A DNA stretch of 42,075 bases from Deltaproteobacteria bacterium (GCA_021787835.1 JAJYLJ010000003.1:1-42075), one strand, 5' to 3'. Counted from the first letter of the stretch, positions 418 to 38,040 are shown. Numbers and translations: made by a program. The notes: a model not told the origin generated them from the letters alone.

Positions 418-1830
418 CTAGTCGGCCCCCTCTTGGGTCACATCGTCAGAAACTGGTATCACAACCTCTACAACAGTTCCCTTTGGCGAAGCCCCGTTGG
501 CCGTTAAATCCTTAAATGAGATAGAACCGCCCATTGATTCAACAAGACGTTTTACAATCCCTAGACCAAGGCCCGTGCCCCTCGCCTTTGTCGTGACAAA
601 CGGTTCAAAGAGCCGCTCCTTAACGGCATCTGGAAGACCCGGGCCGTTATCTTCCACTCGTATCACAAGCCCTGCTACGTCATATTTCAGTCTGAACTCC
701 ACCCTCCCCCCCTGTTCGCCAATGGCATCAATGGCGTTCTGCGTGAGATTGAGTGCTATCTGCGTAAGTTTAGCCTTGTCCGAATATACGCTTGAATGAT
801 CACAGCTAAATGTAAGGATAATATTATCCGCAGGCATTATCAAACCGCTTCTTATATCCTTACAAAATTTTTCTATCTCGAACACCTCTAAATACGGCCT
901 TGCGGGCCTTGCATAGGCAAGAAGATCAAGTGTCAGGCGTTCAAGCCGTTTGGATTCATCCACGATTATCTCCATGTCTTGCCTCAAGGCGGTCGGCAAA
1001 TCTTCTTCAAGATGAAATTGGGCAAAACCCTTTATGCTGCTAAGCGGATTCCTGATCTCGTGGGCCAGGACGGCGGCCATCTCTCCAAGCGATGCAAGTC
1101 TTTCCTGCTCATAGAGCATCGCCTCAAGCCGCTCGCCTCTCCGCCAGGCAAGAAAAAAGAAAAAGGTGATAACCCAGAGTATTATAAGCGAAAACACTGC
1201 AATAAATATCTGAAAATTCGCCTTTCTTACAATACCCTCGGCTGGATATGGATGAATGGCCACTCTCAGGCAAAAGACCTTCTCTATCTTTTCGTTATCT
1301 TCATTCACATGATAAGGAGTCTTTTCAAGTTTATCGATCCTTTTTTTTAAGAGCTTGTAAGCGCGCACGAGCTTTTTGTGAAGCTGAAACGGAAAGTCCA
1401 GTATGAATACATCTTCGCCGGTCGCCAAAGTTGAAAAATGTATGGACGGCACCTCATCTTTTATCACCTTCTCAATGTATGCATCTTTTTGTTCTCTTCC
1501 GATAAGCTTTGGATTCGAATGTAAAATTATCATACCTTCCTGATCATAAAGACCAAGAAAAGCCAGATCTCCGCGCTTCTCGGTCCTTACGACCTCGGGC
1601 AAGAGTCCCTCCTTAAGGCCGAACCTGTCAAGGGTTATACCTATATTCACTGCTATATCAATGGCCCGCTTTTCCATGAGGTTCTTCGCCCCATCAATGG
1701 ATATCTCGTAGGTTCCGATGGCGCTTATAACCACTACCACCGAAAAAAGCATCAGCAAGCCCAATGCTATAAGCTGATAAGGCATTGAGACGACAGAATA
1801 TTTATTGGCTTTTCCTCTATCTTCTGCCAT
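418..1830 (-). CDS. Sensor histidine kinase (two TM segments flanking a roughly 165-aa extracytoplasmic region; HisKA + HATPase_c)
   Basis: 470-aa ORF with H-box LAHEIRNPLSSIKGF, N-box LNLTQNAIDAI, G1 VEDNGPGLP and G2 GTGLGLGIV. Hydrophobic segments are YQLIALGLLMLFSVVVVISAIG and FQIFIAVFSLIILWVITFFFFLAW. No response regulator gene lies next to it. Confidence 0.85.
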   Translation of the reverse strand: MAEDRGKANKYSVVSMPYQLIALGLLMLFSVVVVISAIGTYEISIDGAKNLMEKRAIDIAVNIGITLDRFGLKEGLLPEVVRTEKRGDLAFLGLYDQEGMIILHSNPKLIGREQKDAYIEKVIKDEVPSIHFSTLATGEDVFILDFPFQLHKKLVRAYKLLKKRIDKLEKTPYHVNEDNEKIEKVFCLRVAIHPYPAEGIVRKANFQIFIAVFSLIILWVITFFFFLAWRRGERLEAMLYEQERLASLGEMAAVLAHEIRNPLSSIKGFAQFHLEEDLPTALRQDMEIIVDESKRLERLTLDLLAYARPARPYLEVFEIEKFCKDIRSGLIMPADNIILTFSCDHSSVYSDKAKLTQIALNLTQNAIDAIGEQGGRVEFRLKYDVAGLVIRVEDNGPGLPDAVKERLFEPFVTTKARGTGLGLGIVKRLVESMGGSISFKDLTANGASPKGTVVEVVIPVSDDVTQEGAD

Positions 1831-8766: not shown

Positions 8767-9126
8767 TTACTTTTCACCTATAAGCTCACTCAATGCCTGC
8801 TGAAATTCCTTATCGGATGCTGCCCTCTTGAGAACCCCGGGATCTATATCAACCACATCGGCCTCTGTATTATGCCTTTCCTCCACCAAATCCGAAACAT
8901 CTATCTCTGTAAGCCTCGCAGCGCTTCTTACGGATATATCAATATCTTTATTTTTAATAGCCGCGCCTGATGCGTCAGCAGCATAGATTGCATCAAACCA
9001 GCAAAAGGAATCATCAGCCTTGATGATTTCGCCCAATAATTTTCTCGATGCAGTCAAATTCATGCCGCATCTCCAGCATTTTTCCAGATAATCAAAGGTT
9101 ATAATACCGCATTTCGGGCATCTCAT
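8767..9126 (-). CDS. Hypothetical protein with N-terminal zinc ribbon
   Basis: 119 aa. MRCPKCG...CWRCG gives a CxxC-x11-CxxC motif, followed by an acidic C-terminal half. SD gggagg upstream of the ATG. Confidence 0.55.
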   Translation of the reverse strand: MRCPKCGIITFDYLEKCWRCGMNLTASRKLLGEIIKADDSFCWFDAIYAADASGAAIKNKDIDISVRSAARLTEIDVSDLVEERHNTEADVVDIDPGVLKRAASDKEFQQALSELIGEK

Positions 9127-9231
9127 TTTTTTGACCTCCCTTTTCAGATAAATAACACCTGAGCATTTACAATTCCTTTAAAATATAGCATATAACCATT
9201 ATCTTTTTTATAAAATATCAGGGCAAAATAC

Positions 9232-9585
9232 ATGACTTTAACGAACAATCTAAAATCGACCATCACATGCATTATCATCGGCCTTTTTGTCGTCTCTCTC
9301 TCATCCTGCGCTGGCACCCCTAGAACACATCTAGTGGCTGACGCGTCCCTTATAAAAATAGGGCAGAGTCAGTCCGACATCCTTAAATTGTTCGGACCGC
9401 CCCACGCCAGCCAAACAAATTCATCAGGCCAGGAGGAATGGTATTATTACGAATCAGACAAACACTTCTGGCAGCGCATCCCTTTTCTGGGAAAATACCT
9501 GGGCACGGAAAAAATTAATGCATTACAGATTGTCTTCGATTCAGGAAAAATTATAAAGATCCGGTATTATGTCCCAAGCAGCTAG
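9232..9585 (+). CDS. Lipoprotein, SmpA/OmlA (BamE-like) fold suspected
   Basis: 117 aa. Signal peptide with lipobox [24 protein letters not shown] resembles the BamE/SmpA_OmlA N-terminal motif (from memory). Confidence 0.55.
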
Positions 9586-10240
9586 CAACTCCTGCAACGA
9601 TCAATTCAAGATAGCCAGGGAGAGAATGGTTGCGCAACAGCTCAGGCCCTTCGGGATAACGGATGAAAGGGTCTTGGCCGCCATGAGGAAGATTCCAAGG
9701 CATCTTTTTGTGGAAGAGGCCCTATGGGATCAGGCCTACGGTGATTTTCCGCTACCGATTGGCTACGGGCAGACCATATCCCAACCATATATCGTAGCGC
9801 TAATGACCCAGGAGCTTGGCCTAAAAGGCGATGAAAAGGTGCTTGAAATCGGAACAGGTTCCGGGTATCAGGCCGCGCTGCTTGGAGAGCTTGCAAGGTC
9901 TGTGTTCAGCGTGGAACGCGTATCGGCGCTTCTTGCCAGGGCCAGAAAGATTTTGGACAAGCTTAACTATTCAAACATATATCTCAAACTTGACGACGGC
10001 ACATGGGGATGGAAGGATGAGGCCCCATTCGACGCCATAATAGTCACAGCAGGCTCTCCGGCTGCGCCACAACCACTCCTGGATCAATTAAAGGACCCCG
10101 GTGTCCTGATAATACCGGTGGGAGATGAATATTCTCAAACATTGGTCAAGATCATAAAATCAAACGGGGAGCTATATCATGAGAATAAAGGCGCTGTTCG
10201 CTTCGTAAGACTGATAGGCAATCATGGATGGAGTTCTTGA
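9569..10240 (+). CDS. pcm: Protein-L-isoaspartate O-methyltransferase
   Basis: 223 aa. Motifs [30 protein letters not shown] and the C-terminal VRFVRL are typical of Pcm. Confidence 0.9.
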
Positions 10241-10284
10241 GTTTTAAACTGTTGGGCACCTAAACGATCACGGGTGATATTTTC

Positions 10285-10737
10285 ATGATGCGAAGGATAG
10301 GAGTCATAGGCGCTGGGCTATGCGACCCGGATACCGCCAAAATCGCCGAAAAAGTAGGGGGCATGATAGCCGGTCGAGGGGCCATTCTTTACTGTGGTGG
10401 TCTTGGCGGAGTAATGGAAGCCGCCGCCAAAGGCGCATTTGAGGCTGGCGGCGTCACGGTAGGAATACTTCCAGGATCCAAAGCTGCCGAAGCCAACCGG
10501 TATATAAAAATACCTATCGTTACAGACATGGGATATGCGAGAAACGTGATACTTGTTAAATCATGCGAGGTCCTGATCGCCATCTCCGGTTCATACGGGA
10601 CATTGGCCGAGATATCGCTTGCGCTTAAAATGTGGAAGCCTGTAGTGGGCCTTAAGACATGGGAAAATTTTAAGGGTGTCAACTATGTGACCAACGCCGA
10701 TGAGGCCATTGAAAAGGCCTTCGAGATGTTACCATAG
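10285..10737 (+). CDS. TIGR00725-type / LOG-like Rossmann-fold protein
   Basis: 150 aa. RIGVIGAG..., CGGLGGVMEAAAKGA and GGVTVGILP match the small LOG/lysine-decarboxylase-like family pattern (from memory). Confidence 0.65.
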   Translation: MMRRIGVIGAGLCDPDTAKIAEKVGGMIAGRGAILYCGGLGGVMEAAAKGAFEAGGVTVGILPGSKAAEANRYIKIPIVTDMGYARNVILVKSCEVLIAISGSYGTLAEISLALKMWKPVVGLKTWENFKGVNYVTNADEAIEKAFEMLP

Positions 10738-10770
10738 AAATATAGAAGGCAAAAAAACTAAAACGAGGCC

Positions 10771-11427
10771 TTGATGCAAACTTTCAACTCGATGATCGAC
10801 CTATTACTGCACCTTGATAAATACCTCGGGTTAATTGTCCAGACTTATGGACATTTTATATATCCCATCCTTTTCCTGATCATATTTTCTGAAACAGGGC
10901 TCGTCGTGGCGCCGTTTCTTCCTGGAGACTCCTTGCTTTTTGTAACAGGCACATTCGCAGCTGCGGGCGGGATGGACATTAATCTAACCCTTTCAATCCT
11001 GATAGCCGCAGCCATTCTGGGAGATACGATAAATTACTGGATAGGTTATTACACCGGACAAAGGGCATTGCACTGTAAAAATCCGCAGTTTTTAAACAAG
11101 AAACATCTGGACAGAACGCATGAATTTTATGAGAAATATGGCGGAAAAACCATAATAATTGCTCGTTTTATACCTGTAATCCGCACGTTTGCGCCATTTG
11201 TGGCCGGAGTTGGCAAGATGAACTATAGACGTTTTATTGTCTATAACATGGCAGGCGGAATCTTATGGGTAACACTTCTTGTGCTGGCCGGCTATTTTTT
11301 TGGCAATCTATCCTTTGTGAAAAGGAATCTGACCGCCTTTATCTTTCTTATTATCGTACTTTCGATAATGCCCGGCGTCATTGAATACCTCCGCCATTTT
11401 CAGACAAGAAGCAGCGCAGCCGAATAA
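10771..11427 (+). CDS. DedA family inner-membrane protein
   Basis: 218 aa. Motifs ETGLVVAPFLPGDSLLF and GGKTIIIARFIPVIRTFAPFVAGV, with multiple TM segments. The ATG at 10774 is an equally possible start. Confidence 0.85.
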   Translation: MMQTFNSMIDLLLHLDKYLGLIVQTYGHFIYPILFLIIFSETGLVVAPFLPGDSLLFVTGTFAAAGGMDINLTLSILIAAAILGDTINYWIGYYTGQRALHCKNPQFLNKKHLDRTHEFYEKYGGKTIIIARFIPVIRTFAPFVAGVGKMNYRRFIVYNMAGGILWVTLLVLAGYFFGNLSFVKRNLTAFIFLIIVLSIMPGVIEYLRHFQTRSSAAE

Positions 11428-11430
11428 CTT

Positions 11431-12534
11431 TTAACTCAAATTGGCCTCAAAAATACCCTGCAATATCCTTACATGACTTTCCCAGCTGTATCTTTTGGCA
11501 ATCGCCAGGGCCCTTTCACCCAAAGAACCCCTCGCCTCGTCCGAAAGCCCAAAAAAATGCCTTAAGGCGTTATAAACATCATGGGCCGATGCGCTCTCCA
11601 GCACCAGCCACCCGGCGACCTCACCTGCCAATTCGCATGCTCCGGCTGATTGTGTGGTAAGCGCGGGAGTACCACAGGCCATTGATTCCAAGACCGTATT
11701 TGCAAATGTATCATACAGGGTCGGAAGGATAAAAAGATCTGAAGCGCTGTACAGCCGCCGCATATCTTTTACATAGCCAAGCCACCTTACCTTCGCCGAG
11801 AATTCCGCACGCTTTATCTCGGCGTCGATAGCCCTGTCTCCATACGACCCAGCGATAAGAAGGGTGAAATCACGGCGGCGAAGACCCTTCAATCCATCTA
11901 TTAGATGTTTCAGACCCTTACGCCTCAAATCAGAACCAGCGAATAGAAGTATTGTATCACTTTCGGGTATTCCCATATCAAGCCTCAGGGCGATACGCTC
12001 TCCCGGAGACATTGGATAAAAAGCCTCTAAATCAATCCCATTATAGACTACATGGATATTTGAAGAGGGGACATTGTAATATTGGCGGAGCTGTCTTTTT
12101 ACAAGGTTGGAAATGGCCACAACAGCCCTGGATTCCTCAATGGCCCTTGACTCCATCCATAAAAGCGCCTTGTGCCTCGGCCTCAAACACCTAAGCTTGC
12201 TTACACCGCCATATCCGAGTTCAAGCCATGCGGCGTGAAGGGGATCCGAAATCCTCAATATGTCAACAGGGGCCACTCTTGAGAGTCCATAGGTTAGATC
12301 AAAACCATCTTTTTCTAATACCTTCTTTACATTGAAAAAAAAACTCAAATTTTTAAGGATACTCCCACGCCCGAAGACCTTGGCCCTTGAAAAATTACAC
12401 TCGACCCTTGATCTGTCGGCCACTACCGTAACTTCATGGCCGAGCCTGGAGAGCCATCTGCATATATTCGCACAATAGGCCTCTGCCCCGCCAAATCCAA
12501 AACCACATTCCCTGCGAATAACCGCAAGTCTCAT
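11431..12534 (-). CDS. Glycosyltransferase family 4 (LPS core-type, RfaG-like)
   Basis: 367 aa with GT-B architecture: N-terminal GFGGAE and a C-terminal E-x7-E-like region PTLYDTFANTVLESMACGTP. Its start overlaps the stop of the upstream kinase gene (12531-12534). Confidence 0.8.
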   Translation of the reverse strand: MRLAVIRRECGFGFGGAEAYCANICRWLSRLGHEVTVVADRSRVECNFSRAKVFGRGSILKNLSFFFNVKKVLEKDGFDLTYGLSRVAPVDILRISDPLHAAWLELGYGGVSKLRCLRPRHKALLWMESRAIEESRAVVAISNLVKRQLRQYYNVPSSNIHVVYNGIDLEAFYPMSPGERIALRLDMGIPESDTILLFAGSDLRRKGLKHLIDGLKGLRRRDFTLLIAGSYGDRAIDAEIKRAEFSAKVRWLGYVKDMRRLYSASDLFILPTLYDTFANTVLESMACGTPALTTQSAGACELAGEVAGWLVLESASAHDVYNALRHFFGLSDEARGSLGERALAIAKRYSWESHVRILQGIFEANLS

Positions 12535-13373
12535 TGCGAGGCCCTTGATTTAAGTTTATAGTCATGTCTTGCTATCTGAAGGACCTTTTTCTCAATCCTT
12601 GCCACTATCCCTTTGGAGCCGCACTCAGGAAGTCTCGCCGTATAGATGTCCCAAAATATCCTTGACAGCTTATCCCATTCGCCCGCACTCAAGACCGCTT
12701 TTGATGAATATGCGAGCTGGGCTATGTCTTTTATCAACCATGAAATGACAATGGGTTCGGCCCTGCGAAGCCTCTGTAGATCCACGACAGAGACATGGCC
12801 GTCTTGCTGCTCGTCCCAAAAAAGATGACACAGATAGAAATCTTGATGGCTAAGGCCAAGGCTATGAAAACGCGCAGCAAAATGAGCCAGCCTGCTTACC
12901 ACTCTAGCCTTGTGATCAAATGGAATATCTCTTGCCAAAAAATCATTGATGCGCACACCCGCAACTTTTGTCATGACGACAATTGACCTTCCACTGACGT
13001 CACTGCCTGCCGCCACAGGATCAAAGGTCTTAAGCCCGGCTTCTTTCAATATACTGGCACCCGACCATTCAACCTTGCTGCCTTCAGGCCTTAACCAAAA
13101 AAAAGGCCATCTTTTATCTTTATGATAACGCTTTACAAAGAGCGTCTCTCCGCAAAGCTCCATTGTACAGATATCCCGATCGGCCTTTTTTTTGAAAATT
13201 TTTAAACGTTCAGACCCCCATAACTCGCCGAAGTCTGAAAGCCCTGCCTCATTAAAATACCGGCTCCATCCATCAACGATCTCCAACCCGTCCTTTACGG
13301 GCAGCATCGGATAAAGAGTGCCACCAAAAGGCCACATCCAGGGGCGGGCGCGGCTTTTTAGTTTGCCTCGCAT
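12531..13373 (-). CDS. Lipopolysaccharide kinase (Kdo/WaaP/InaA) family protein
   Basis: Kinase-like catalytic segment GLSHQDFYLCHLF, followed by VDLQR. It lies between bioC and a GT4 gene. The start is uncertain (13412, 13373 or 13337). Confidence 0.6.
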   Translation of the reverse strand: MRGKLKSRARPWMWPFGGTLYPMLPVKDGLEIVDGWSRYFNEAGLSDFGELWGSERLKIFKKKADRDICTMELCGETLFVKRYHKDKRWPFFWLRPEGSKVEWSGASILKEAGLKTFDPVAAGSDVSGRSIVVMTKVAGVRINDFLARDIPFDHKARVVSRLAHFAARFHSLGLSHQDFYLCHLFWDEQQDGHVSVVDLQRLRRAEPIVISWLIKDIAQLAYSSKAVLSAGEWDKLSRIFWDIYTARLPECGSKGIVARIEKKVLQIARHDYKLKSRASQ

Positions 13374-14128
13374 AAAAAAACCTGATATGAGGCCCTTACA
13401 GCGCCAAAACACCTTCTATAGAGATGGTCCATGCGGTAAATGCGGGCTGGGGTAAGGCGCAGTGGATGGGTGGGCTGTATTGACAAAGACACGCCGGTAC
13501 CTTTCAGGCTGCGAAACAAGGAAAACAAGTTATCATATTCTCTGCATATCAATAATTCATCCATATAAACGCGCTTAAATATGCTCAAGAGCAAGTCCTT
13601 AATTTTTTGATAATCAGGAAATGACATGGCAGGCAGTGCAATATCGTAGCCAAAACTTTCAGATAAGATACAAGCCAACTCCCTTAACGTCAACGGACCG
13701 AAAATGGAGAACACGATCGTTCCTTTGCTTGAGAGCAGGCCTTTGAATATCCTGAATGCCGCCTCCATGTCTTGAAACCAATGGAGCGCGCTGTTCGCAG
13801 TGATGAGATCAAAAGGCCCTTTGATAAAAAACGGCAGATCCTCTCCGTCCGCGACACTGAAATTGAGTCTATCGTTTTGAAAAAACTTCTTTCTGGCCTC
13901 GGCTATCATGACCGGAGATATATCAATGGCCTCAATAATTGCATCCTTAAAGACCTCTAAAAGCATTTCCGTATAACATCCAGTGCCGCAGCCGATCTCA
14001 AAAATACGCTCGCATGACCTGCCTGTTAATTTTGATTTAAGACGGCGGGCCGCCTCAAGCTGTACGTCCGCATAATCATCATAGGTAAGAGAGGCCCTGT
14101 TGAACGATCTCTCTATTGTTGTCTTCAA
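13358..14128 (-). CDS. bioC: Malonyl-ACP O-methyltransferase BioC-like (class I SAM methyltransferase)
   Basis: 256 aa. N-terminal FNRASLTYDDYADVQ, SAM motif I IFEIGCGTGCYT, and ANSALHW. It sits in a bioF/bioH-like cluster. Confidence 0.75.
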   Translation of the reverse strand: MKTTIERSFNRASLTYDDYADVQLEAARRLKSKLTGRSCERIFEIGCGTGCYTEMLLEVFKDAIIEAIDISPVMIAEARKKFFQNDRLNFSVADGEDLPFFIKGPFDLITANSALHWFQDMEAAFRIFKGLLSSKGTIVFSIFGPLTLRELACILSESFGYDIALPAMSFPDYQKIKDLLLSIFKRVYMDELLICREYDNLFSLFRSLKGTGVSLSIQPTHPLRLTPARIYRMDHLYRRCFGAVRASYQVFLCEAN

Positions 14129-14799
14129 GACGCTATAAGCACCCTTTCAAACTCAGGAGATAAAAATGGAAGATGACCGGATGAATTGATTACTATGATA
14201 TCCATATCTTCATGTCTTGGCGCAGGGGTCAACGGCGCCACAAGGTCTCTGGCGCCGTAAAAAAATCTTATACTCCTATCAGGATGAATACATCCGGCCG
14301 CACCAACGCTTCCCCTTGAAAGATAATCGAGACCGGCTTTCAACCCTGTTGGGTCAAGACCCATCAAATGCGCCTCCTCAAGATCCCTGATAAACCATTC
14401 ATAATCTTCCCTCTGACCTATAAAACACCGCCGATAGAAACGCCTGAGCATATCAATAAAATTTCTTTCCATACTATCAAGCTGATCCTTGATTTCTTTT
14501 CTTGGGAAACGCCTCCTAAAAGAAACAAGGAACAAGTCATTTGTCATGGACGGATATTTACGGCAAAAATCAATGGCTACATAAGAGCCCATTGACCACC
14601 CTAAAATAGATACAGCCCTAATATCTTTTTTGCGTAAAAAATTGCAAAGATAGTCGGAAATATCTCCATACACAGGCTCAGCAGGCATGACATAGTTATA
14701 ACAAAGGCATACGCGCGAAAAAATAGCCGGAAGAAACCCCCATCCAGGTATCAATGCCAAATATTCAGCATATCCCCTTTCCATAATACGAAAATCCAT
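14125..14799 (-). CDS. Alpha/beta hydrolase, probable pimeloyl-ACP methyl ester esterase (BioH-like, short form)
   Basis: 224 aa. Nucleophile elbow GWSMGS and a C-terminal SGHLPF (catalytic His context). It lies between bioF and bioC, with overlapping stops and starts. Confidence 0.55.
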   Translation of the reverse strand: MDFRIMERGYAEYLALIPGWGFLPAIFSRVCLCYNYVMPAEPVYGDISDYLCNFLRKKDIRAVSILGWSMGSYVAIDFCRKYPSMTNDLFLVSFRRRFPRKEIKDQLDSMERNFIDMLRRFYRRCFIGQREDYEWFIRDLEEAHLMGLDPTGLKAGLDYLSRGSVGAAGCIHPDRSIRFFYGARDLVAPLTPAPRHEDMDIIVINSSGHLPFLSPEFERVLIAS

Positions 14800-15925
14800 C
14801 AGCCAACGCCTCCAAAAGCATGTCTATATCCCTAGGGCCATGGTCAGCGGTTATGGATAGTCTGATCCTTGAGCTACCTTCTGGAACAGTAGGAGGGCGG
14901 ACGGCCTTTACAAAAAAACCCAACGCTCTCAAATGATCCGCAAGTGCAACGGCGCTTTTGTCTTCCCCGACTATGACGGGTACAATTTGAGACCTGCCAG
15001 CGGGGTTTATGCCTAATTGTCTTTTAAGTCTCGCCCGCATGTGTGCTGAATTCTTCAAGACCTTTTCCCTCCTTTTTTTTTCGCTGGCAAGAAGCTTGAT
15101 GGCGGCAATATTTGAACTTACCACAGGTGGCGGAAGGGCTGTCGAGAATATAAAGGTCCTGGCCTTATTGACTAAAAAATTTTTTAAAGTCTTAGACACA
15201 GCCACAAAGGCGCCGTATCCGCCCAAGGCCTTCCCGAATGTGCCAATGATCAGATCGACCCCGTCCGCCAAGGAAGAATCGATGAGGCCTTCGCCGTTGT
15301 CGCCAAAAACTCCAACTGCATGGGCCTCGTCCACCATTAGCATCGCGCCGTAACGCTCCTTTGTATCTATGAGTTCACGGATCATGGCCTCATCGCCTTC
15401 CATGCTATAGAGACTCTCAACTAATATGAGGATATTTTTATACTTATTTCTGTTTTCTCTAAGAAGCGCCTCCAGGGATTCCAAATCATTGTGGCGAAAT
15501 CTGAAAAAACGTGCGCCAGAAAGGATGATGCCGTCTATAATACTTGCATGATTAAGGCGATCCGAGAATATTGCATCTCCATGCCCGCATATGGCTGGTA
15601 TGGTGCCAGTGTTTGCCAGATAACCGCTGCCAAATATAAGAGCGGCCTCCTTGCCCTTTAAAAAAGCGACGGCCCTTTCAAGCTCATGATGTATCTCCAT
15701 ATCTCCGCTCATAAGCCTTGAAGCCCCGGCCCCGGCCCCCCACCTGTCCATGGCCTCGATCCCGGCCTTTATTAGGGCTGGATGATGGGCAAGGCCAAGA
15801 TAATCATTTGAAGCGAAATTCACCAACCGCTCGCCGCCAATTATAACAACGCCTGGCCGCAACGCCTCAATGGGCTCGAGATGCCTCGGTAGGCTCATTG
15901 AGGAATAGTTTGGGGAAATAGTCAT
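14765..15925 (-). CDS. bioF: 8-amino-7-oxononanoate synthase
   Basis: 386 aa. Motifs NDYLGL, SGYLAN, DEAHAVG, and PLP-lysine context GTFGKALGGYGA. Confidence 0.9.
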   Translation of the reverse strand: MTISPNYSSMSLPRHLEPIEALRPGVVIIGGERLVNFASNDYLGLAHHPALIKAGIEAMDRWGAGAGASRLMSGDMEIHHELERAVAFLKGKEAALIFGSGYLANTGTIPAICGHGDAIFSDRLNHASIIDGIILSGARFFRFRHNDLESLEALLRENRNKYKNILILVESLYSMEGDEAMIRELIDTKERYGAMLMVDEAHAVGVFGDNGEGLIDSSLADGVDLIIGTFGKALGGYGAFVAVSKTLKNFLVNKARTFIFSTALPPPVVSSNIAAIKLLASEKKRREKVLKNSAHMRARLKRQLGINPAGRSQIVPVIVGEDKSAVALADHLRALGFFVKAVRPPTVPEGSSRIRLSITADHGPRDIDMLLEALADGFSYYGKGIC

Positions 15926-15990
15926 GTAGGCCGATTAAAGATATTTTTGCCGAAATTTGAATATAACACACCGAAGATTAAAAATAAAAA

Positions 15991-16020
15991 TGCCCTTCAA
16001 ACCATAGAGCTTGAAGGGCA
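15991..16020 (-). terminator. Rho-independent terminator after the c7-like cytochrome gene
   Basis: A perfect 10-bp stem, tgcccttcaa (15991-16000) with ttgaagggca (16011-16020), around a 10-nt loop. On the minus strand it is followed by tttttatttt. Confidence 0.7.
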
Positions 16021-16041
16021 TTTAAAAAAAATTAAAAAAAA

Positions 16042-16386
16042 TTATTTATGACATGTGGCGCAGGCCTTACCCTTTGGAACCTTCATTGCGGTATGGCATG
16101 GCCAGCACATCTTTGAATGAAAATCATTCATTATACCTTCTTTTTTTACGATATCGAACTTAAGCTTGCCGCCAGCCGCACTTGTATGGCATTTATCGCA
16201 TGTCAATTTAGACTGATGCATTGCGTGCGGGAATATGACAGCGCTCTTGCTGCCAGTAATGCCATATTTTGCCTTTAGATCTATGGTGGCAGGCCCTTTA
16301 TCCCCGGCAAATGCCAAAATAGGTGTAACTACCAACAATGATGCCGCTATTAATCCTAATGATCTACCCCTCATGTTTGTGAGCAC
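16042..16386 (-). CDS. Periplasmic triheme cytochrome c (c7/c3 family-like)
   Basis: 114 aa with a signal peptide. Three CxxCH sites (CDKCH, CWPCH, CATCH) with interspersed His (FPHAMHQ). The layout resembles Geobacter PpcA-type c7 cytochromes (from memory). Confidence 0.8.
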   Translation of the reverse strand: MLTNMRGRSLGLIAASLLVVTPILAFAGDKGPATIDLKAKYGITGSKSAVIFPHAMHQSKLTCDKCHTSAAGGKLKFDIVKKEGIMNDFHSKMCWPCHTAMKVPKGKACATCHK

Positions 16387-29671: not shown

Positions 29672-29748
29672 TGGTCGGGGCGAGAGGATTCGAACCTCCG
29701 GCCCTCTGCTCCCAAAGCAGATGCGCTACCAGACTGCGCTACGCCCCG
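29672..29748 (-). tRNA. tRNA-Pro (anticodon UGG), CCA encoded
   Basis: The reverse complement reads CGGGGCGTAGCGCAGTCTGGTAGCGCATCTGCTTTGGGAGCAGAGGGCCGGAGGTTCGAATCCTCTCGCCCCGACCA (77 nt). It has a 7-bp acceptor stem, a D arm GCGC/GCGC, an anticodon stem TCTGC/GCAGA with loop TTTGGGA, and a T arm GGAGG/CCTCT with loop TTCGAAT. Confidence 0.9.
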
Positions 29749-29899: not shown

Positions 29900-30418
29900 A
29901 TGTTTAATTTGGAAAACAATATCTTCGGGGCTGAACACTTTAAAATCTTAAACGAAGCCTTATATATATCCGAAGAGATCACGACAGATTATTTTTTATT
30001 CGATAACAAGCGTTGGATGAAAAATCCATATGAGATCTTGACATTAAAAGATGTCCCGGTGAATGAACATCCTGATAAGGCACTTGCACATTTAGTGCGC
30101 TATACAAAAGATTTAAAACAAAAGAAAAGCGGCAGTGACGATAGGGCGTTTTATAGGATATGCCTTAATGACTACCGTATCCTTAAAAAAACTTTTGGCG
30201 GGGCTAGAGAAAAACTCCTACCTTTTCTATTATATATAATGACCCATGAGCTTGTGCATATAGCAAGATTCGCCCTTTTTGCCTCCCATCCTGTTATATC
30301 GACACATAAAAACGAAGAGAGGCTGACACACGACTTAACATGTGAGATATTGAAACCGCTCACGAGCATAAAAAGTCTTGCAGAGGTGGCAGACGGATTT
30401 AGAATAGGCTCTCATTAG
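29900..30418 (+). CDS. Hypothetical protein with an HExxH motif (possible small metallopeptidase-like protein)
   Basis: 172-aa ORF in the AT-rich block. Its only recognisable element is LYIMTHELVHIARF (HExxH), preceded by a hydrophobic helix. No family recognised and no signal peptide. Confidence 0.45.
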   Translation: MFNLENNIFGAEHFKILNEALYISEEITTDYFLFDNKRWMKNPYEILTLKDVPVNEHPDKALAHLVRYTKDLKQKKSGSDDRAFYRICLNDYRILKKTFGGAREKLLPFLLYIMTHELVHIARFALFASHPVISTHKNEERLTHDLTCEILKPLTSIKSLAEVADGFRIGSH

Positions 30419-30533: not shown

Positions 30534-30827
30534 ATGCCAATATACGAATATGAATGCAATTCTTGCGGTAAAATTATTGAACACATGCAGAAGCTTTCCG
30601 ATCCTAATCCCCAAAAATGCTCATGCGGCGGCAGACTCAACAAGCTGATTTCCAACTCAAGTTTTCATCTGAAAGGAACAGGTTGGTATGTAACGGACTA
30701 TAAGGGGAAAAAGGGCGAGACCTCCAAAAAATCAAGCAGTAAGCCGCTGGCTGAAACAAAGACGCCCGCCAATCAGGACATATCTACATCCTCATCGAAA
30801 GAAACTCCGGCCGCCTGTAAGCCATAA
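30534..30827 (+). CDS. FmdB-family zinc-ribbon protein (CxxC_CxxC_SSSS type)
   Basis: 97 aa. MPIYEYECNSCG...KCSCGG is the canonical FmdB/TIGR02605-type opening, followed by a low-complexity Ser/Lys tail. SD ggagg upstream. Confidence 0.8.
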   Translation: MPIYEYECNSCGKIIEHMQKLSDPNPQKCSCGGRLNKLISNSSFHLKGTGWYVTDYKGKKGETSKKSSSKPLAETKTPANQDISTSSSKETPAACKP

Positions 30828-30947: not shown

Positions 30948-31451
30948 CTACGAACAGTTTGGGCTAATGCAATTGGCAGGATTGGCCTCTCTTTTTTTAA
31001 CCCTTATGATCTTGAGATTTTTCTTTATATTTGCACATCCTGACGCCTCGTCCCTTGCTTCCTTCATGGCCTTTATATAGACATCACATTCCTGGCAATG
31101 ATTTAGCTCTCTGGCGCAGGCCGTGCTCGCCCTCTCCCAGCAAGGCACAATCTTATTTGCAAAGGCAGTGCATTTTTCTCTTCTTTCCGGAGGGCATTTC
31201 TTGATTTCCCAGCATGGCGTCAACTCAAGCAGCTTTTTTATGCCAGGGATGCTTATACCTTCTTCATGGATAAGATGACGCAAACAACTTATCCACTCGA
31301 CATCATCCTGAGAATAATAGCGCTTATTACCTTGGCGGGCAGGATTGATGAGGCCCTCTTCCTCATATACCCTGAGGGTTCTAGGGTGCAATCCGAGCAG
31401 TTTGGCCGCTACACTTATGGGATAAATGGGTTCATTTTTGTCGAGTTCCAT
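30948..31451 (-). CDS. MerR-family (HspR-like) transcriptional regulator fused to a Cys/Trp-rich C-terminal domain with two PCWE motifs
   Basis: 167 aa. N-terminal HTH ISVAAKLLGLHPRTLRVYEEEGLINPARQGNKRYYSQDDVEWISCLRHL. C-terminal TPCWEIKKCPPERREKCTAF...VPCWERASTACARELNHCQECDVY. SD ggaggg lies 3 nt upstream of the ATG at 31451. Confidence 0.8.
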   Translation of the reverse strand: MELDKNEPIYPISVAAKLLGLHPRTLRVYEEEGLINPARQGNKRYYSQDDVEWISCLRHLIHEEGISIPGIKKLLELTPCWEIKKCPPERREKCTAFANKIVPCWERASTACARELNHCQECDVYIKAMKEARDEASGCANIKKNLKIIRVKKREANPANCISPNCS

Positions 31452-32385
31452 TTTCCCTCCTATTTTATATGGTCATGTAACTTTAACAACTTTAAGCATT
31501 CTAATGTTTAACTATTAAAAAATATAAATTTTTATGTCAATATTTAAATTTGAATATCATTCATTTTTTAACTTTTTTAGCCTTTACCAAAATAATTCAA
31601 TAACGGTCTTTTAATAATTATAATATGATAGTTAAAGGAAAGAAACATCAAGAAGAATCTATTTTGATGAATTTTCTATAAAAACTAAAAATAAATATTG
31701 AGGCCATTAAGATATAACCATTACAACATATCGCATCCTGGACTGAGAAGAGGATTTGCAAGAATCAAATTTGCATTAGCGGCCCTGAGGATCTTTAGAT
31801 GCGTGCAATCTGATCTTAACATAATCATATAAGAAAATATCCTCACAAGTATATTGTTTTCATCAATCCAGCTAGCCATAATTATAAATGATAATATCAT
31901 GCAGCGCTAAGATAGCCATTTTTTTGTTTTAACCGATGATGTCAAAGACAGATAAGGCCCAAAATATTGCACTCGACAATAATCATACATATATGGAATA
32001 CTGTTGATCGGGAAGATAGTAGAATATCCAATGGCGTCAAAATTTATTCTTTTAACTAGCTAATTTTATTATTATTTATAAATTTTATTTATATTAAAAT
32101 TGTAAGAATATTAACAGATTAATTTTTTCCATTAATTACAATTAAAATATTTTACATTCACGATAAATATTTATCCATTTTTATTGATAGATTGAATATC
32201 ACAATTTTTTTATAATAAAAAATATCTTGATTTTAACATTTTAAATTGTCAACTAACTAATTGAAAATATTATTTTTTTCTTGACAAAACAAAAAAATAA
32301 TTTATTCTTTTAATTAAAGATATAAGATTAAAAGTCAATAAAAATACGCTTTAATTAACTTCTTGAATAAGGAGGAAAGCGGACC

Positions 32386-32628
32386 ATGAATAAAATGAAG
32401 GCAATAAAAACAAAACTGAAAGAACGTAGCAATAAAATTATCAATATTGATGATATATCAAGCGTTGATTTTGAGGAAGAGGTAGGCAACATAGGTTTGG
32501 GATCAGCAGGCATAGTAGCTGGACTTGTTGGGGCGTGGAGTCTTATCTGTCTTGCAGCTGGGCTTATAGCAGCTCATGGTCCTATTGGTTTTATAACAAG
32601 TTGGATTGGTGCAGTTATTGGCAATTAA
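32386..32628 (+). CDS. Small membrane protein, paralogue 1 (charged N-terminus, glycine-zipper hydrophobic C-terminus), unknown family
   Basis: 80 aa. SD aaggagg (32369-32375) lies 10 nt before the ATG. The C-terminal 44 aa, GLGSAGIVAGLVGAWSLICLAAGLIAAHGPIGFITSWIGAVIGN, align without gaps to the next ORF (23 of 44 identical, my count). Confidence 0.65.
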   Translation: MNKMKAIKTKLKERSNKIINIDDISSVDFEEEVGNIGLGSAGIVAGLVGAWSLICLAAGLIAAHGPIGFITSWIGAVIGN

Positions 32629-32657
32629 ATTAATTAATTCAGAAAGGAGGCTCTAAA

Positions 32658-32888
32658 ATGCAAAACGCTTATTCAACAACACAGGTAAAGGCAAAGGATA
32701 AGGCCGGCATAGACGTGTCAAGCACGAGTATAGAAAAAGAGATATCGAAATTAACACTGGCCGCAGGTGGTATAATGGCTGGCGCCGTAGGTGTATGGGG
32801 CCTTGTATGTCTTGCGGCGGGCATGATTTCTGCTGGCGGACCAATAGAACTCGCCAAGGCATGGTTTTCTGCTGTGACAGGTATGTAA
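32658..32888 (+). CDS. Small membrane protein, paralogue 2 (tandem duplicate of 32386..32628), unknown family
   Basis: 76 aa. SD aaaggagg (32643-32650) lies 7 nt before the ATG. C-terminal sequence is TLAAGGIMAGAVGVWGLVCLAAGMISAGGPIELAKAWFSAVTGM. The shared pattern is AG-I-x-AG-x-VG-x-W-x-L-x-CLAAG-x-I-x-A-x-GPI-x5-W-x2-AV-x-G. Confidence 0.65.
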   Translation: MQNAYSTTQVKAKDKAGIDVSSTSIEKEISKLTLAAGGIMAGAVGVWGLVCLAAGMISAGGPIELAKAWFSAVTGM

Positions 32889-32948
32889 TTTGTAATATAT
32901 AATCTAATATATTACAAATGATGGGACATCTTTTTGATGTCCCATCAT
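32888..32948 (+). terminator. Two consecutive perfect 13-bp hairpins after the small-protein pair (putative terminator)
   Basis: Hairpin 1 is atttgtaatatat (32888-32900) with atatattacaaat (32907-32919). Hairpin 2 is atgatgggacatc (32918-32930) with gatgtcccatcat (32936-32948), loop ttttt. T-rich sequence follows, but the T-tract is not immediately adjacent. Confidence 0.55.
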
Positions 32949-33096
32949 AAAGTTATCTTTCTTTTTCTCATTCATCAATTACCTCTCCATTAAAAAACAT
33001 CCTTAATCTATCAGATAAAGATGTTTTGCCCTTCCATTTACGCTAAGATTTAATTATTATTTTATTATTTGGTTAATGTTTATATTTTTGAACTTA

Positions 33097-33119
33097 AAGA
33101 TAATTTTTTTAATTATCTT
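33097..33119. repeat. Perfect 9-bp inverted repeat with 5-nt spacer abutting the SD of the ftsH-like gene (possible operator or 5-UTR hairpin)
   Basis: aagataatt (33097-33105), ttttt, then aattatctt (33111-33119). The SD gggagg starts at 33121 and the TTG start is at 33133. Confidence 0.5.
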
Positions 33120-33132
33120 CGGGAGGAAATAA

Positions 33133-35016
33133 TTGCGTTATATGATCAGGGCCTTAATGGCCATTATAATATTTGCTGCAATAGGAATAACCGTTTATTT
33201 GCCCTGGCACTTTGAAGATCAACTTCCAGTTATGAAATATAGCGATTTTATAACAGCCGTCAAAAAGGGGGAAATTTCAGAAGTAAAAATCGAAGGCGGA
33301 GAGCTGACGATAACAGATAACAACAGACGGACCTTTTTTACTTTTTCACCCGACATAAATAATCTTATCCCCACATTATTAGAACACAAAGTTTCAATAA
33401 AGACTGAATCCACCAAACTAGGCTTCATATTCTATCTCCTTATCGCAACAATATTCTTAAGTATAACAGGGCTTTTCATATTATGGTTCTTCAATAAGCA
33501 AATCAGGAAAAAAGAAGACAGTAAGTTTGCAAAAACCAAAATTATCAATCTCTGCGAACGCATCAAGTGCGCTACATTTGATGATATAAAAGGTATCAAC
33601 GAAGCGAAAGAAGAGGTGGAAGAAATCGTAGAATTTCTCAGGCAACCTTCCTCAGTAAGCCGCCTTGGCGGAAGAATCCCAAAAGGTGTCTTGCTCATGG
33701 GTCCCCCAGGCACTGGCAAGACATTGCTCGCCAGGGCCATCGCCGGCGAGTCCGGTGTGCCTTTTTTTAGTATAAGCGGTTCAGATTTTGTAGAGATGTT
33801 TGTCGGGGTCGGGGCATCCAGGGTTAGAGAACTCTTTAAGGAGGCCAAAAAAAATGCACCTTGCATAATCTTTATAGACGAAATAGACGCCGTAGGTAAA
33901 AACAGGGGAATGGGCGATGCGCCAGGCGGTCAAGAAGAAAGGCAGCAGACCCTCAACGCACTTCTGGTGGAGATGGATGGCTTTGAATCAGATGACAATA
34001 TAGTAGTTTTGGCCGCGACCAACCGGCCCGATATTTTAGACCCAGCCCTTTTACGTCCCGGGCGCTTTGACAGACGCATTTATATCCTGCCGCCCGACAT
34101 GAAAGGCCGCATTGATATCCTGAAAATACACACAAGAAATGTCGTTTTATCAAAAGACATAGACCTTGATGCTATCGCCAAAAGCATACCAGGCTTTACC
34201 GGTGCCGATATCCGCAACCTGGTCAATGAAGCAGCCCTTGTAGGGGCGAGGAAGGGCAAGGATGCCATAGAGATGGAAGACTTTGAGGAAGCCAAAGATA
34301 AGATCATTCTTGGGGTCGAAAGAAAGGGGATGGTAATGAACGAACAAGATAGACGGACCGTTGCCTATCATGAGGTGGGTCATGCCATTATGGCTAAAAT
34401 ATTACCCAATACCGACCCTGTCCACAAAATAACGATTATCCCGAGAGGAAGGGCTATGGGGATAACTCAACAGATCCCCCTTGATGACCATCATGCGTAT
34501 TCAAAGGAATACCTGACGAACAGGATTAAAATCATCTTTGGAGGAAGGGCGGCCGAAGAAGTGGTATTTGACAAAATAACGACTGCCGCAAGAGATGATA
34601 TCATAAGGGCGACGGAAATAGCCACAATGATGGTATGCCAATATGGAATGAGCGATAATATCGGTCCGGTCTCTTATCAGTCTACTACCGGCTCCTTTTT
34701 GTTAGGAGAGTCTCGCCCGCTATTTTTAAGTGAAGAGATAGCCAGCCTGGCAGACAGGGAAATAAAAGGATTTCTGGAAGAATGTTATGAATCTGCAAAA
34801 GATACGATAAAAAAGGAGAGGCAGCTGCTGACAAAAGTAGCTGAAATATTATTGATCCAAGAGACGTTGGACAGAGAAGAATTTGAGATAATTTATGAAT
34901 GCAATCAAAAACTTATGAAAGAAGATATGCAAAATTCCGACAAATGCTCTATCTGTAACATAGCTTGGTGTGAAAAAAAACTTGCAGGGCGCCAAGACGA
35001 AAGCACTGAAGCCTAA
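33133..35016 (+). CDS. ATP-dependent zinc metalloprotease FtsH family, divergent paralogue with Cys-rich C-terminal tail
   Basis: 627 aa. Two TMs, Walker A GPPGTGKT, Walker [33 protein letters not shown], protease site HEVGHAI. It departs from the usual FtsH consensus at [14 protein letters not shown] and TTAARDD. The C-terminus is [30 protein letters not shown] start 6 nt after gggagga. Confidence 0.9.
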
Positions 35017-35193: not shown

Positions 35194-36909
35194 CTACATC
35201 AAATCAGAGGCGATTTTCGCCTTTAATTCCTGAATTTTTTTCTCTATATCCGCCTTTCCCTTGGCGTCTTTGGTAAACTCAAGGGCCTTTTTAAAAAAAA
35301 GCATGGCATTCTTATAATTATTTCCGGCAAGATAGGCATCTGCAAGGTGTTCAATGATAGTCGGGTCGTCAGGTATGAGTCCGTTTGCCTTTGCGAGAAA
35401 CTCGACAGCCTTTTTATATTCGCCCTTCTTATAATAAACCCACCCCAAGCTGTCGATGATATATCCATCATCAGGCGCCTTTGTAAGGGCCCTTTTTATC
35501 AATCCCTCAGCCTCATCAAGATTTATCCCCTCTTCAGCGTAAGTGTAGCCAAGATAGTTGAGCGCAGAGACATGATCAGGGTCCAGCTTGATGACCTTTT
35601 TGACAAGACTTACAGCCCGTTGCCTGTATCCGGCCTTATCTTCCAGCATGGCCAAGGAAAATAAGAAAGTTACATTATCAGGGCTCGCCTCCAACGCCTT
35701 ATTAAGCACGGACTCCGCATCGGATATCCTGCCCGCATCCTCATAGAGCCCGGCAAGGCCCAATATCCACGGCTCGGCATTGGGTTGCGTCTCAAGAAGC
35801 CCCTTGAGTAATTTAATCGCCTTGTCAGACTCGCCTTTTCTCTTTAAAAGAAGGGCGAGCCGGTACTTTGCGTCAATAAAATTATCCTCGCCCTTCTTGA
35901 TCTTCTCCAAGAGATCGATTGCTGCGTCTATGTCGCCTTTTTGCTCATTTGCTATAGCCATGTAAAAGAGCACCTGACCGCTTTCAGGGTATGTCTTGGC
36001 GAGTTCCTTGAGTGTGGCAATGGCCTCGTCATATCTGTCAAGCTGAAGAAGCACCAGTGCGATCCTGAGCCCAATCCTCGGATCATCAGGAACCAGGGCC
36101 CTTAACTGTCTCAGCTCTTCAAGCGCCTCGTCATATCGCTTTTCCTCCACCAAAAGACCCACAAGCTCATCTCTGGCATCCGTGTTGCCTGGCTCAATGA
36201 CGAGAAATGCCTTACACATATCTATGGCCTCTGGCAAAGAACCCATCTGTTCATAGATGTTAGCCAAATCAAGATAAACGGCCGGAAAGTGCCTGTTCAA
36301 CTCAAGGCTCTTTTTCAGAAACTCCAACGCCCTTGGGTAATCCTTGGAATCTCTATAGAGCATCCCAAGATAATAATAGGCCAAAAAAGAGCGCGGGCCA
36401 GGTATCCGCGCCAACCTTTTAAAAGATTCTTCGGCCTTTGCAAAATCCTTGGCCTGAGCGTAAATAGAACCTTGCAGAAATAAGGCGTCTGAATAATCAG
36501 GGTTGGATTTTAAAATCTTATTTATAATGTCCAGCGCTGCACCGGAGTTATCATGCGCCGCATAACAACGGGCCAGCATGACTTTAAGCCCGATGTCTCC
36601 GGGATCGCTGGCTATGGCCCGCTTGGCCCATGTCTCACAGGCGTCGAAATCCCCTTTTTGAAAGGCGGTATTGGCAAGCTCTCTCATGATCGTCACAGCC
36701 CCGGGATCCAATTCAAGAACGCGCTTTAATAAATCCATGGCCGCATCGAACTTGCCGTTGTCCCTTTCTATATTAGCCTGCATATAATAGGCATAGGCAT
36801 CTTTACGGGCGGAATTTTCGTCCCCTGCGCCATCGCTTGAAGGGATCAAGGCCAATATGAGAAAAAATAAAAAAAGAAACCTTACGCTGCGCATCCGCTT
36901 TATGGTCAT
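35194..36909 (-). CDS. Secreted tetratricopeptide-repeat (TPR) protein
   Basis: 571 aa. Signal-like N-terminus (VRFLFLFFLILALIPSS), then TPR-like 34-aa repeats along the whole length (recurrent A-x3-Y/F-x2-A...P pattern). Its start overlaps the rpoH stop by 4 nt. Confidence 0.85.
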   Translation of the reverse strand: MTIKRMRSVRFLFLFFLILALIPSSDGAGDENSARKDAYAYYMQANIERDNGKFDAAMDLLKRVLELDPGAVTIMRELANTAFQKGDFDACETWAKRAIASDPGDIGLKVMLARCYAAHDNSGAALDIINKILKSNPDYSDALFLQGSIYAQAKDFAKAEESFKRLARIPGPRSFLAYYYLGMLYRDSKDYPRALEFLKKSLELNRHFPAVYLDLANIYEQMGSLPEAIDMCKAFLVIEPGNTDARDELVGLLVEEKRYDEALEELRQLRALVPDDPRIGLRIALVLLQLDRYDEAIATLKELAKTYPESGQVLFYMAIANEQKGDIDAAIDLLEKIKKGEDNFIDAKYRLALLLKRKGESDKAIKLLKGLLETQPNAEPWILGLAGLYEDAGRISDAESVLNKALEASPDNVTFLFSLAMLEDKAGYRQRAVSLVKKVIKLDPDHVSALNYLGYTYAEEGINLDEAEGLIKRALTKAPDDGYIIDSLGWVYYKKGEYKKAVEFLAKANGLIPDDPTIIEHLADAYLAGNNYKNAMLFFKKALEFTKDAKGKADIEKKIQELKAKIASDLM

Positions 36910-37856
36910 GCCTCTTCAATCCCTTCATTATAAGATTCAATATCTTTCACTCTGTCTTTTAAGAATTGCCTAATCTTCTTCTTTACCCTGGATTCTATCT
37001 GCCTTATCCTCTCTCTTGATACACCGAACTCCTCTCCAAGCTCTTGCAACGTTATCGGATCATCGGTAAGCATGCGTTTTTCAAAAATTATCTTCTCTTT
37101 TCCTTTGAGCGTGCCCCTCAAGTCTTCAAGGTGTTTTCTCAATTGAGCGAGCATCTCTTTCTTGGCGAAGGCAGATTCAATAGGAGGATCATGGCTTGGC
37201 AGGAAATCCATATGACTGTCATCTGAATTCTCTTGCATGGGGGCGTCGAGCGATACCTCCCATGATCCCATCCTTTGCTCCATGCCTATAACATCTTCTT
37301 CCGGCACGCCGAGGCTCTCAGAGATAAGCTTTGGAACCGGTTCGAAGCCAAGGGCGTAGAGCCGCTCCTTTTCCTTGCCTAAATTATAGAAGAGCTTTCT
37401 CTGGGCCTGTGTCGTTCCTATCTTGACCAGCCGCCAATTATCCATGATGAATTTTAATATATATGCCTTGATCCAAAAGGAGGCGTAATACGAAAACTTC
37501 ACGCCTTTATAAGGATCGAATTTCTTTACTGCGTGCATGAGCCCAATGCTTCCCTCCTGGACGAGGTCCATGAAGTTTTGCATCCAAAATTTTTGGAAAT
37601 CAAGGGCTATCTTCACGACAAGCCGGAGGTTGGCCGTCACTATCCTCGATGCGGCCATGGGATCATGGGTCTCATAGTATAACTTGGCCAGCCTCTCTTC
37701 TTCCTCCTTTGTCAAGAGTGGGTAATGGCCTATCTCGCTCATATATAACTGAATCGGATTTGTCTCGTCAGAAACCACCGCATCAAACCTGCCGAGCCTC
37801 AAAGCAGGCAGATTGCCCTTTCCTCTATTCACCTTCATCTTTATCCTATCCGCCAT
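36906..37856 (-). CDS. rpoH: RNA polymerase sigma factor RpoH (sigma-32)
   Basis: Sigma-70 regions 2-4 (LRLVVKIALDF, DLVQEGSIGLMHAVKKFDP) and an RpoH-box-like WRLVKIGTTQAQRKLFYNL. The start is set at MADRIKMK (ATG 37856). The track start at 37952 adds a 32-aa hydrophobic extension that looks spurious. Confidence 0.85.
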   Translation of the reverse strand: MADRIKMKVNRGKGNLPALRLGRFDAVVSDETNPIQLYMSEIGHYPLLTKEEEERLAKLYYETHDPMAASRIVTANLRLVVKIALDFQKFWMQNFMDLVQEGSIGLMHAVKKFDPYKGVKFSYYASFWIKAYILKFIMDNWRLVKIGTTQAQRKLFYNLGKEKERLYALGFEPVPKLISESLGVPEEDVIGMEQRMGSWEVSLDAPMQENSDDSHMDFLPSHDPPIESAFAKKEMLAQLRKHLEDLRGTLKGKEKIIFEKRMLTDDPITLQELGEEFGVSRERIRQIESRVKKKIRQFLKDRVKDIESYNEGIEEA

Positions 37857-38040
37857 CAGAACCTCTATAAAAATTGATAAATTAATTCTACAGCAAAAAC
37901 CTCTTTTCTCCAAAAGAATAAGAATACATCCACCAGTAAGAAACAAAATCAATATCTTGAAACCTGCCTAAAAAGATTTAAATTCCCTATCGAAAAAAAG
38001 GTACATATTCCATGCCTTCACGGCCTCTTGGCGCTTAAAA

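Follow-up and report, generated by a model that had tools for sequence, protein, structure and literature searches.

A family of small membrane proteins encoded beside a distinct FtsH paralogue in Thermodesulfobacteriota

We here describe a locus in a 42,075-nucleotide stretch of DNA from a Deltaproteobacteria bacterium (GCA_021787835.1, JAJYLJ010000003.1:1-42075; hereafter the window), in which two tandem genes for small membrane proteins precede a gene for a paralogue of the membrane protease FtsH. On the other side of a long A/T-rich spacer lies the gene of a MerR-family regulator, and an operon with a sigma-32-type (rpoH) gene converges on ftsH. These four elements—the regulator, the small-gene pair, the hairpins together with ftsH, and the converging rpoH operon—had been proposed in an initial annotation made from the sequence, and we recover each of them where it had been placed (Table 1). 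Which of them belong together? Comparison with related loci ties the small proteins, members of an undescribed family, to the FtsH paralogue, and this part of the initial reading stands, whereas its heat-shock and MerR framing finds little support.

Table 1. Features of the locus, with positions counted from the first letter of the window
Feature	Position	Strand	Details
MerR-family regulator, HspR-like helix-turn-helix (HTH) and C-terminal double Cys-Trp (PCWE) domain	30948..31451	-	167 aa
A/T-rich spacer	31452..32385		934 bp; 23.9% GC vs 46.2% for the window
Conserved promoter/leader block of the small-gene pair	32222..32344	+	81% identity to the L094 upstream region
Small membrane protein, A-type	32386..32628	+	80 aa; AGGAGG 9 nt before ATG
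Small membrane protein, B-type	32658..32888	+	76 aa; AAGGAGG 6 nt before ATG
Double hairpin between small genes and ftsH	32888..32948	+	two perfect stems with 13-nt arms; dG -29.6 kcal/mol
Hairpin with 9-nt arms, AAGATAATT/AATTATCTT	33097..33119	+	abuts the GGGAGG Shine-Dalgarno sequence of ftsH; read from sequence
FtsH-clade AAA+/M41 zinc protease	33133..35016	+	627 aa; TTG start; TIGR01241
C-terminal 4-Cys tail of FtsH	34900..34971	+	C590-x14-C605-x2-C608-x4-C613
TPR gene	35194..36909	-	overlaps the sigma-32-type gene; the pair converges on ftsH
Sigma-32-type gene (rpoH)	36906..37952	-	NF005143, 268 bits, above the cut-off of 241

The two small proteins are paralogues of each other (49% identical over 57 aa, E 2e-19), and their genes have the strong Shine-Dalgarno sequences that the initial annotation had pointed out. 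In the A-type protein, a polar N-terminal tail leads into a single long hydrophobic helix, which an HGP turn connects to a short helix at the C-terminus. Accordingly arranged is an AlphaFold 2 model computed from the family alignment, with residues 1-26 predicted to be disordered and helices at 27-63 and 66-78 on either side of the turn (predicted local distance difference test, pLDDT, ~90 over residues 40-80). A word-indexed search with the 80-aa protein matched itself alone. A profile built from both paralogues and searched exhaustively with HMMER returned 148 representative clusters (50% identity), nearly all of them 65-80 aa in length, and a word-indexed search with a 44-member profile returned 325 clusters, in which every member with a source name is a “hypothetical protein”. 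The named organisms are Desulfocapsaceae, Desulfobulbaceae, Desulfobacterales and other Thermodesulfobacteriota, with no other phylum among the named members. In the family consensus, the first ~30 residues form a polar tail of variable sequence, and the remainder reads E-x-SK-(hydrophobic helix)-G-x-W-x3-C-L-x2-G-x4-GGP-x2-L-x3-WF-x-AV-x-G, in which six columns (G, W, C, G, A and G) are nearly invariant. That the small open reading frames (ORFs) are spurious or chance ORFs is ruled out by the 148 homologous clusters of near-uniform length.

Do these proteins fall into any described family? A consistent Pfam or NCBIfam match was found for none of 44 family members, the PDB held no sequence match to the small proteins at E up to 1, and PADLOC gave none for them, returning just generic AAA and HTH matches for the locus. 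By sequence, they also lie outside the HflK/C SPFH, YccA/BI-1, SpoVM and MgtR families. This agrees with the initial annotation, which had been unable to assign them; likewise, no description of a small-protein/FtsH system was found in the literature. Judged by these sequence comparisons, the small proteins belong to a real, conserved and uncurated family, whose members measure about 70-77 aa.

The protease encoded after them scores 731 bits as a whole protein against TIGR01241, above the cut-off of 600, comprises the Pfam domains FtsH_ext, AAA, AAA_lid_3 and Peptidase_M41, and finds its best PDB matches in the Thermotoga and E. coli FtsH (E 1e-165 to 1e-169). The FtsH_ext match (30.5 bits against 25.5), together with hydrophobic segments at about residues 5-24 and 97-120, corresponds to an anchor of two transmembrane (TM) segments and a periplasmic domain. 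The Walker A and B motifs, the pore-loop MFVG, the second region of homology, HEXXH (HEVGH in the window) and the third zinc-ligand Glu are intact both in this protein and in all nine members of the clade to which it belongs. A neighbour-joining tree of 84 FtsH proteins unites the eight that are linked to small genes, including that of the window, in an exclusive clade (bootstrap 95/100), and when the FtsH of a further locus, L096, was added, a nine-member clade was recovered in 52 of 60 replicates, with L096 as the sister of the window protein in all 60. The window protein is thus separate from the housekeeping orthologues of the ftsH-folP type (the arrangement ftsH-folP-coaX is seen further outside the clade, in L020), and its place in an exclusive small-gene-linked clade makes it, on the tree, a member of a specialised paralogue lineage. 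Its C-terminal cysteines point in the same direction, as the pattern C-x12-17-CxxC-x4-5-C is present in eight of the nine clade members and in L032, and in 0 of the 75 other FtsH sequences compared.

In the nearest outgroups, L023, L027 and L035, a PAS/sigma-54 regulator precedes ftsH, accompanied by a PAS kinase in L027 and L035; cytochrome or 4Fe-4S genes follow ftsH in L023 and L027, and L035 ends at the contig edge. The FtsH of L032 (14-3810), which has the same 4-Cys tail and is encoded divergently from a PAS/sigma-54 activator, is placed by the tree immediately outside the clade linked to small genes, and its 5.9-kb contig shows none of these genes.

How consistently do small genes and ftsH occur together? 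We compared ten loci outside the window with members of the small family (L006-L011, L094 and L096-L098), one metagenome locus having been obtained through a narrow alignment search with the small proteins. Contigs L002-L005, which encode the exact 80-aa protein in the same gene order as the window, add no diversity. In nine of the ten, an FtsH gene adjoins the small-gene array, in three gene orders (co-directional; divergent, in L009; and with NrfD and MerR upstream, in L096), and the array genes match the family profile in every case tested. As controls and outgroups served loci from a contig scan with FtsH, which matched generic motifs and yielded mostly housekeeping FtsH of many phyla; at none of these 80 control loci does a small-family gene lie within 6 kb. 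Together, this makes for a well-supported link between the small proteins and FtsH in the genomes compared, and upholds the initial annotation's association of the pair with an FtsH paralogue.

Seven of the loci (L006, L007, L008, L010, L011, L097 and L098) have one common architecture, consisting of a PAS histidine kinase, a sigma-54 response regulator, three to six small genes, an FtsH-like protease, a ~301-aa two-TM protein, a cytochrome c7-like protein, NrfD and a 4Fe-4S protein; L097 and L098 have an additional 4Fe-4S/cytochrome c7/NrfD set upstream. In L009, FtsH is divergent from a small-gene pair that is followed by two NapC/NirT-like cytochromes, and in L096 the MerR and NrfD-like genes come first, followed by small A, small B, a terminator and FtsH. 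The small proteins most closely related to those of the window are encoded in L094, where the pair stands alone; here (7742-16228), it lies directly upstream of genes for a NifA-like sigma-54 activator, nifH, P-II, nifD and nifK.

The recurrence of respiratory genes allows for a different reading of these loci, namely that an NrfD-type quinone-interacting complex (cytochrome c7/NrfD/NrfC-like 4Fe-4S) has the small proteins as its accessory subunits or assembly factors, with FtsH as a merely co-regulated quality-control factor and not a direct partner. NrfD-like genes are present in eight of the ten non-window loci, and in L097 and L098 NrfD-type complexes flank the module on both sides; yet L094 and L009 are without NrfD, which is also absent among the window ORFs of at least 150 aa. 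In L096, the small pair begins within ~35 bp after the NrfD-like gene, consistent with co-transcription, and this NrfD is 35% identical to that of the Desulfobulbales modules, but in all other loci the small genes are nearer to ftsH than to nrfD. Since the FtsH outgroups L023 and L027 also have cytochrome/Fer4 neighbours in the absence of small genes, the respiratory context would fit this reading; overall, we consider it unlikely.

The small genes come as ordered tandem sets of two to six. In a tree of array members, these cluster according to their place in the array rather than their genome of origin. One group unites the leading genes of the pairs in the window, L094 and L096, and another the second genes from the window and L094; the second small gene of L096, when correctly translated, resembles the B-type. 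The triplet loci show three position-specific groups, with the whole triplet duplicated in L006 and L008. Such position-specific clustering argues for non-redundant paralogues, most simply the parts of a mixed oligomer.

Small, hydrophobic peptides rich in Gly, encoded in several tandem copies with strong signals for expression, and with GG pairs in some of the sequences, could also bring to mind exported or membrane-active peptides, i.e., toxins or precursors resembling bacteriocins or ribosomally synthesized and post-translationally modified peptides (RiPPs), for which FtsH would serve as a processing, immunity or clearance factor. Here, however, it is the hydrophobic C-terminal part that is conserved and the N-terminal part that varies, the reverse of the leader/core logic; there is no conserved double-glycine column, and neither a C39/ABC exporter nor a modifying enzyme is found in the 11 loci. 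Array order is, moreover, fixed and position-specific, and the context is chromosomal and respiratory. We deem this explanation highly improbable, and reject the bacteriocin/RiPP precursor version of it on account of the variable N-terminus and the missing GG site, exporter and modifying enzyme.

A further observation concerns the ~301-aa two-TM protein, which belongs to no Pfam family and is encoded directly after the FtsH paralogue, overlapping ftsH in some loci (L006 9451-10356; L007 2140-3069 and 9239-10144; L008 10999-11904; L010 9305-10228; L011 9256-10161; L097 9799-10713; L098 9355-10260). Its C-terminus, LAAIINE-TNLSNGIINYAQLL, resembles the dimerisation helix of histidine kinases, with the phospho-acceptor His replaced. 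L007 holds two pairs of FtsH paralogue and ~300-aa partner on one contig (279-3069 and 7364-10144), of which the second alone is preceded by small genes. Near the window locus, no remnants of NrfD, of the sigma-54 regulator or of the ~301-aa protein were found, the sole tblastn match being a histidine kinase far away at 520..1101.

Conservation of the A/T-rich spacer in other loci is confined to its last ~125 bp. This block aligns over 125 nt with the sequence that precedes the orthologous L094 pair (E 4e-24), and includes a sigma-70-like TTGACA-16-TATTCT found by promoter scan (32281..32308) as well as the motif AAATTGTCAACTAACTA at 32243..32259, which occurs once in the window; by this alignment, it is a conserved regulatory region. 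No sigma-54 promoter was found at the window's locus, nor at L094 or L096. A sigma-54 promoter (TGGCAC-N5-TGCA) lies before each of the Desulfobulbales-type arrays and before that of L009, so that among the nine small-protein loci without MerR, eight have a sigma-54 promoter, seven of these also a two-component system, and L094 neither. Clusters of TGCAACA/TTGCAAC-like repeats are seen 150-250 bp upstream of the array sigma-54 promoters in several loci (L006 4399-4815 and 5600-6432; L008 6014-6428 and 7220-8016; L007 6232-6502; L011 6219-6502), and the adjacent sigma-54 activator probably binds to them.

At the other end of the array, all ten loci tested (the window and nine others) have a strong hairpin after the last small gene, with a T-run behind it in several. 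The double hairpin of the window is probably a terminator or attenuator. No Rfam family was found in 31400..33200. Inside the spacer, gene callers place a 59-aa ORF (31721-31900, minus strand) in three of four long assemblies; the ~340 bp around it are less A/T-rich than the remaining spacer, and neither homology nor an RNA family was found for it.

What is the place of the MerR-family regulator? Its N-terminal winged HTH matches MerR_1 (PF13411; E 6.7e-20, 71 bits against a cut-off of 21.6). The initial annotation had called it HspR-like, and HspR (NF047375) is indeed the top NCBIfam model as well as the label that some sources use for its homologues, but the score of 80.2 bits falls below the curated cut-off of 105. 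The HspR-associated inverted repeat (HAIR) operator, scanned for as CTTGAGT-N7-ACTCAAG, is absent from the locus; the sole match in the window, with three mismatches, is at 23043, compared with 1.4 matches expected by chance. Neither dnaK nor clpB neighbours the regulator gene in the window, L092, L093 or L096. The C-terminal tail, TPCWEIKKC...VPCWERAS...C...C..C, contains PCWE twice and reaches 16.1 bits (E 0.011) against the two-CW domain model NF045718, below its cut-off of 35; an AlphaFold 2 model of this Cys domain has a pLDDT of ~43. Across 14 aligned homologues, the seven Cys of the tail, C55 and both Trp are all invariant.

The initial annotation had further joined this regulator to the small genes, a linkage that recurs in L096 alone, the other nine small-protein loci being without it. 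The grouping seen in the window may hence be partly coincidental, with the MerR/double-CW protein as a general stress or redox regulator that has its own regulon, and the converging rpoH operon as unrelated. We find 427 homologues of the regulator, and those among the matches listed are 58-85% identical, including the Cys domain, their named sources being Dissulfurimicrobium, Dissulfurirhabdus, Dissulfuribacter, Thiovibrio, Desulfuromonas and Geopsychrobacteraceae. In Dissulfurimicrobium hydrothermale (L092), the homologue (85% identical) adjoins an RND efflux operon, and in Dissulfuribacter thermophilus (L093) it has no neighbour in common with the window; both contexts are unrelated to the module and without small genes. 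In L094, the promoter block is conserved and no MerR gene is close by. MerR-activated promoters typically have a -35/-10 spacing of 19-20 nt, with a palindrome between the two elements; the best promoter-like site here has a 16-nt spacer, and palindromes in the A/T-rich DNA around it are indistinguishable from chance. Against coincidence speaks L096, where a 72%-identical copy of the regulator lies directly upstream of NrfD, the small pair and FtsH in flanks that otherwise differ from those of the window. Moreover, the regulator could act in trans, so that control would be compatible with non-adjacency. We give a partly coincidental grouping an even chance. Membership of the regulator in the module is likewise rated at about even odds, because L096 repeats the grouping while the other contexts, the absence of a HAIR operator and the promoter spacing point away from it; for now, the MerR/double-CW protein is best described as a neighbour of the module that, with uncertainty, may also regulate it. 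In the window (30534-30827, plus strand) as in L092 (9560-9874), the gene convergent with that of the MerR/double-CW protein encodes an FmdB-type CxxC zinc ribbon, and it is the sole neighbour that the two regulator loci share.

As for the remaining flanks, the rpoH operon that had been noted to converge on ftsH is present in the window, but such convergence is found in none of the other loci, all of which are without rpoH. The sigma-32-type protein, at 268.8 bits, stays below the stricter TIGR02392 cut-off of 323.1. Its ORF measures 348 aa from a mechanically assigned TTG start, compared with 316 aa in public gene calls, and the true start therefore probably lies downstream of 37952. Upstream of the locus, a 172-aa ORF (29900-30418, plus strand) with an HExxH-like HELVH motif and no Pfam or NCBIfam family may encode a small metallopeptidase-like protein, and a tRNA-Pro (TGG; 29672-29748, minus strand) is the sole Rfam/ARAGORN match in the window.

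Taking these comparisons together, we lean slightly towards the view that the window carries a pared-down version of a gene module conserved in Thermodesulfobacteriota, in which the small proteins would be a client—substrate or modulator—of a dedicated FtsH. The initial annotation had seen them as possible adaptors, inhibitors or substrates of the protease, in a module that could sense heat, redox state or metals. An A-B pair in the window, or a 1-2-3 triplet elsewhere, encoded just upstream of the FtsH paralogue, would be made in excess over the protease, because strong ribosome-binding sites precede the small genes and a hairpin/terminator stands before ftsH. The proteins would insert into the membrane via the single hydrophobic helix and the short return helix, leaving the disordered polar tail of ~30 residues free, and may come together as a mixed oligomer, the specific client of this FtsH paralogue, either as a regulated substrate or as a modulator of its specificity. 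In most genomes, a PAS kinase and a sigma-54 activator would turn on the set among cytochrome c7/NrfD/4Fe-4S genes, and this control and setting suggest that, in response to a redox-type signal, the module helps to remodel respiratory membrane complexes or to control their quality. In the window genome, the conserved sigma-70-type promoter would take the place of sigma-54 control, and the adjacent MerR/double-CW regulator may be the sensor, which is the weakest step of the proposal.

Several observations weigh against this interpretation. The outgroups L023, L027 and L035 have a related sigma-54/cytochrome context without small genes, and therefore the protease lineage does not strictly need the small proteins. 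The L094 pair, in turn, has neither FtsH nor MerR within 8 kb of it. Of the nine supporting loci, seven have the same architecture and could be closely related phylogenetically. The MerR gene adjoins small genes in just two of the 11 loci (the window and L096), and the regulator is widely conserved, also in unrelated contexts. Lastly, the net charge of the N-terminal tail is about zero across 244 family members, which leaves the predicted membrane topology of the small proteins ambiguous.

A bolder version of the client model would have an ordered hetero-oligomer of the small proteins serve as a dedicated gate or adaptor of a redox-sensitive FtsH and, through the 4-Cys tail of the protease, retarget it to NrfD-type complexes, under the control of Cys-rich sensors in the window (MerR/double-CW) and of a sigma-54 two-component system elsewhere. 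We regard this version as quite improbable. If true, sulfur-cycling Thermodesulfobacteriota would have a way of regulating membrane proteolysis that is new and specific to their lineage. FtsH paralogues with private small-protein partners have rarely been defined, and here an uncurated family pairs with a distinct, Cys-tailed FtsH clade. Regulatory handles come in the form of sigma-54 promoters or the conserved sigma-70 block, alongside a recurring respiratory-complex neighbourhood. Should the pairing be functional, it would introduce a new control of membrane proteolysis and provide context for ~150 clusters (50% identity) of “hypothetical proteins”, whose carriers—Desulfocapsaceae, Desulfobulbaceae and Desulfobacterales metagenome-assembled genomes among the named members—are poorly studied.

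How does the locus relate to known systems? HspR is a MerR-family heat-shock repressor and provides the best-scoring named model for the HTH of the regulator, which differs from it in its score below the cut-off, an extra invariant Cys/Trp domain, and the lack of a HAIR operator and of a dnaK/clpB neighbour. With the two-CW domain, the regulator shares a stretch of ~55 residues that is rich in Cys and contains two Cys-Trp motifs; unlike that domain, this stretch scores below the cut-off and is fused to a MerR HTH. The phage-shock (Psp) response is a sigma-54 membrane-stress system with the small membrane proteins PspB/C/D/G, reminiscent of the sigma-54 activator that, in most of the related loci, would drive several ~70-aa membrane proteins; here, however, none of the proteins is homologous to those of the Psp system, PspA is missing, the fixed partner is a protease, and the window is without a sigma-54 promoter. 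Closest in kind are the small membrane-protein partners of FtsH, i.e., HflK/C and YccA in E. coli, SpoVM in B. subtilis and MgtR in Salmonella. As in these systems, a membrane AAA+/M41 protease with complete catalytic motifs adjoins genes for small membrane proteins that are potential substrates or modulators. The present system departs from them in that the small proteins have no detectable similarity to curated families and come in ordered sets of two to six paralogues, and in that their putative partner is not the housekeeping FtsH but a dedicated clade marked by the 4-Cys tail.

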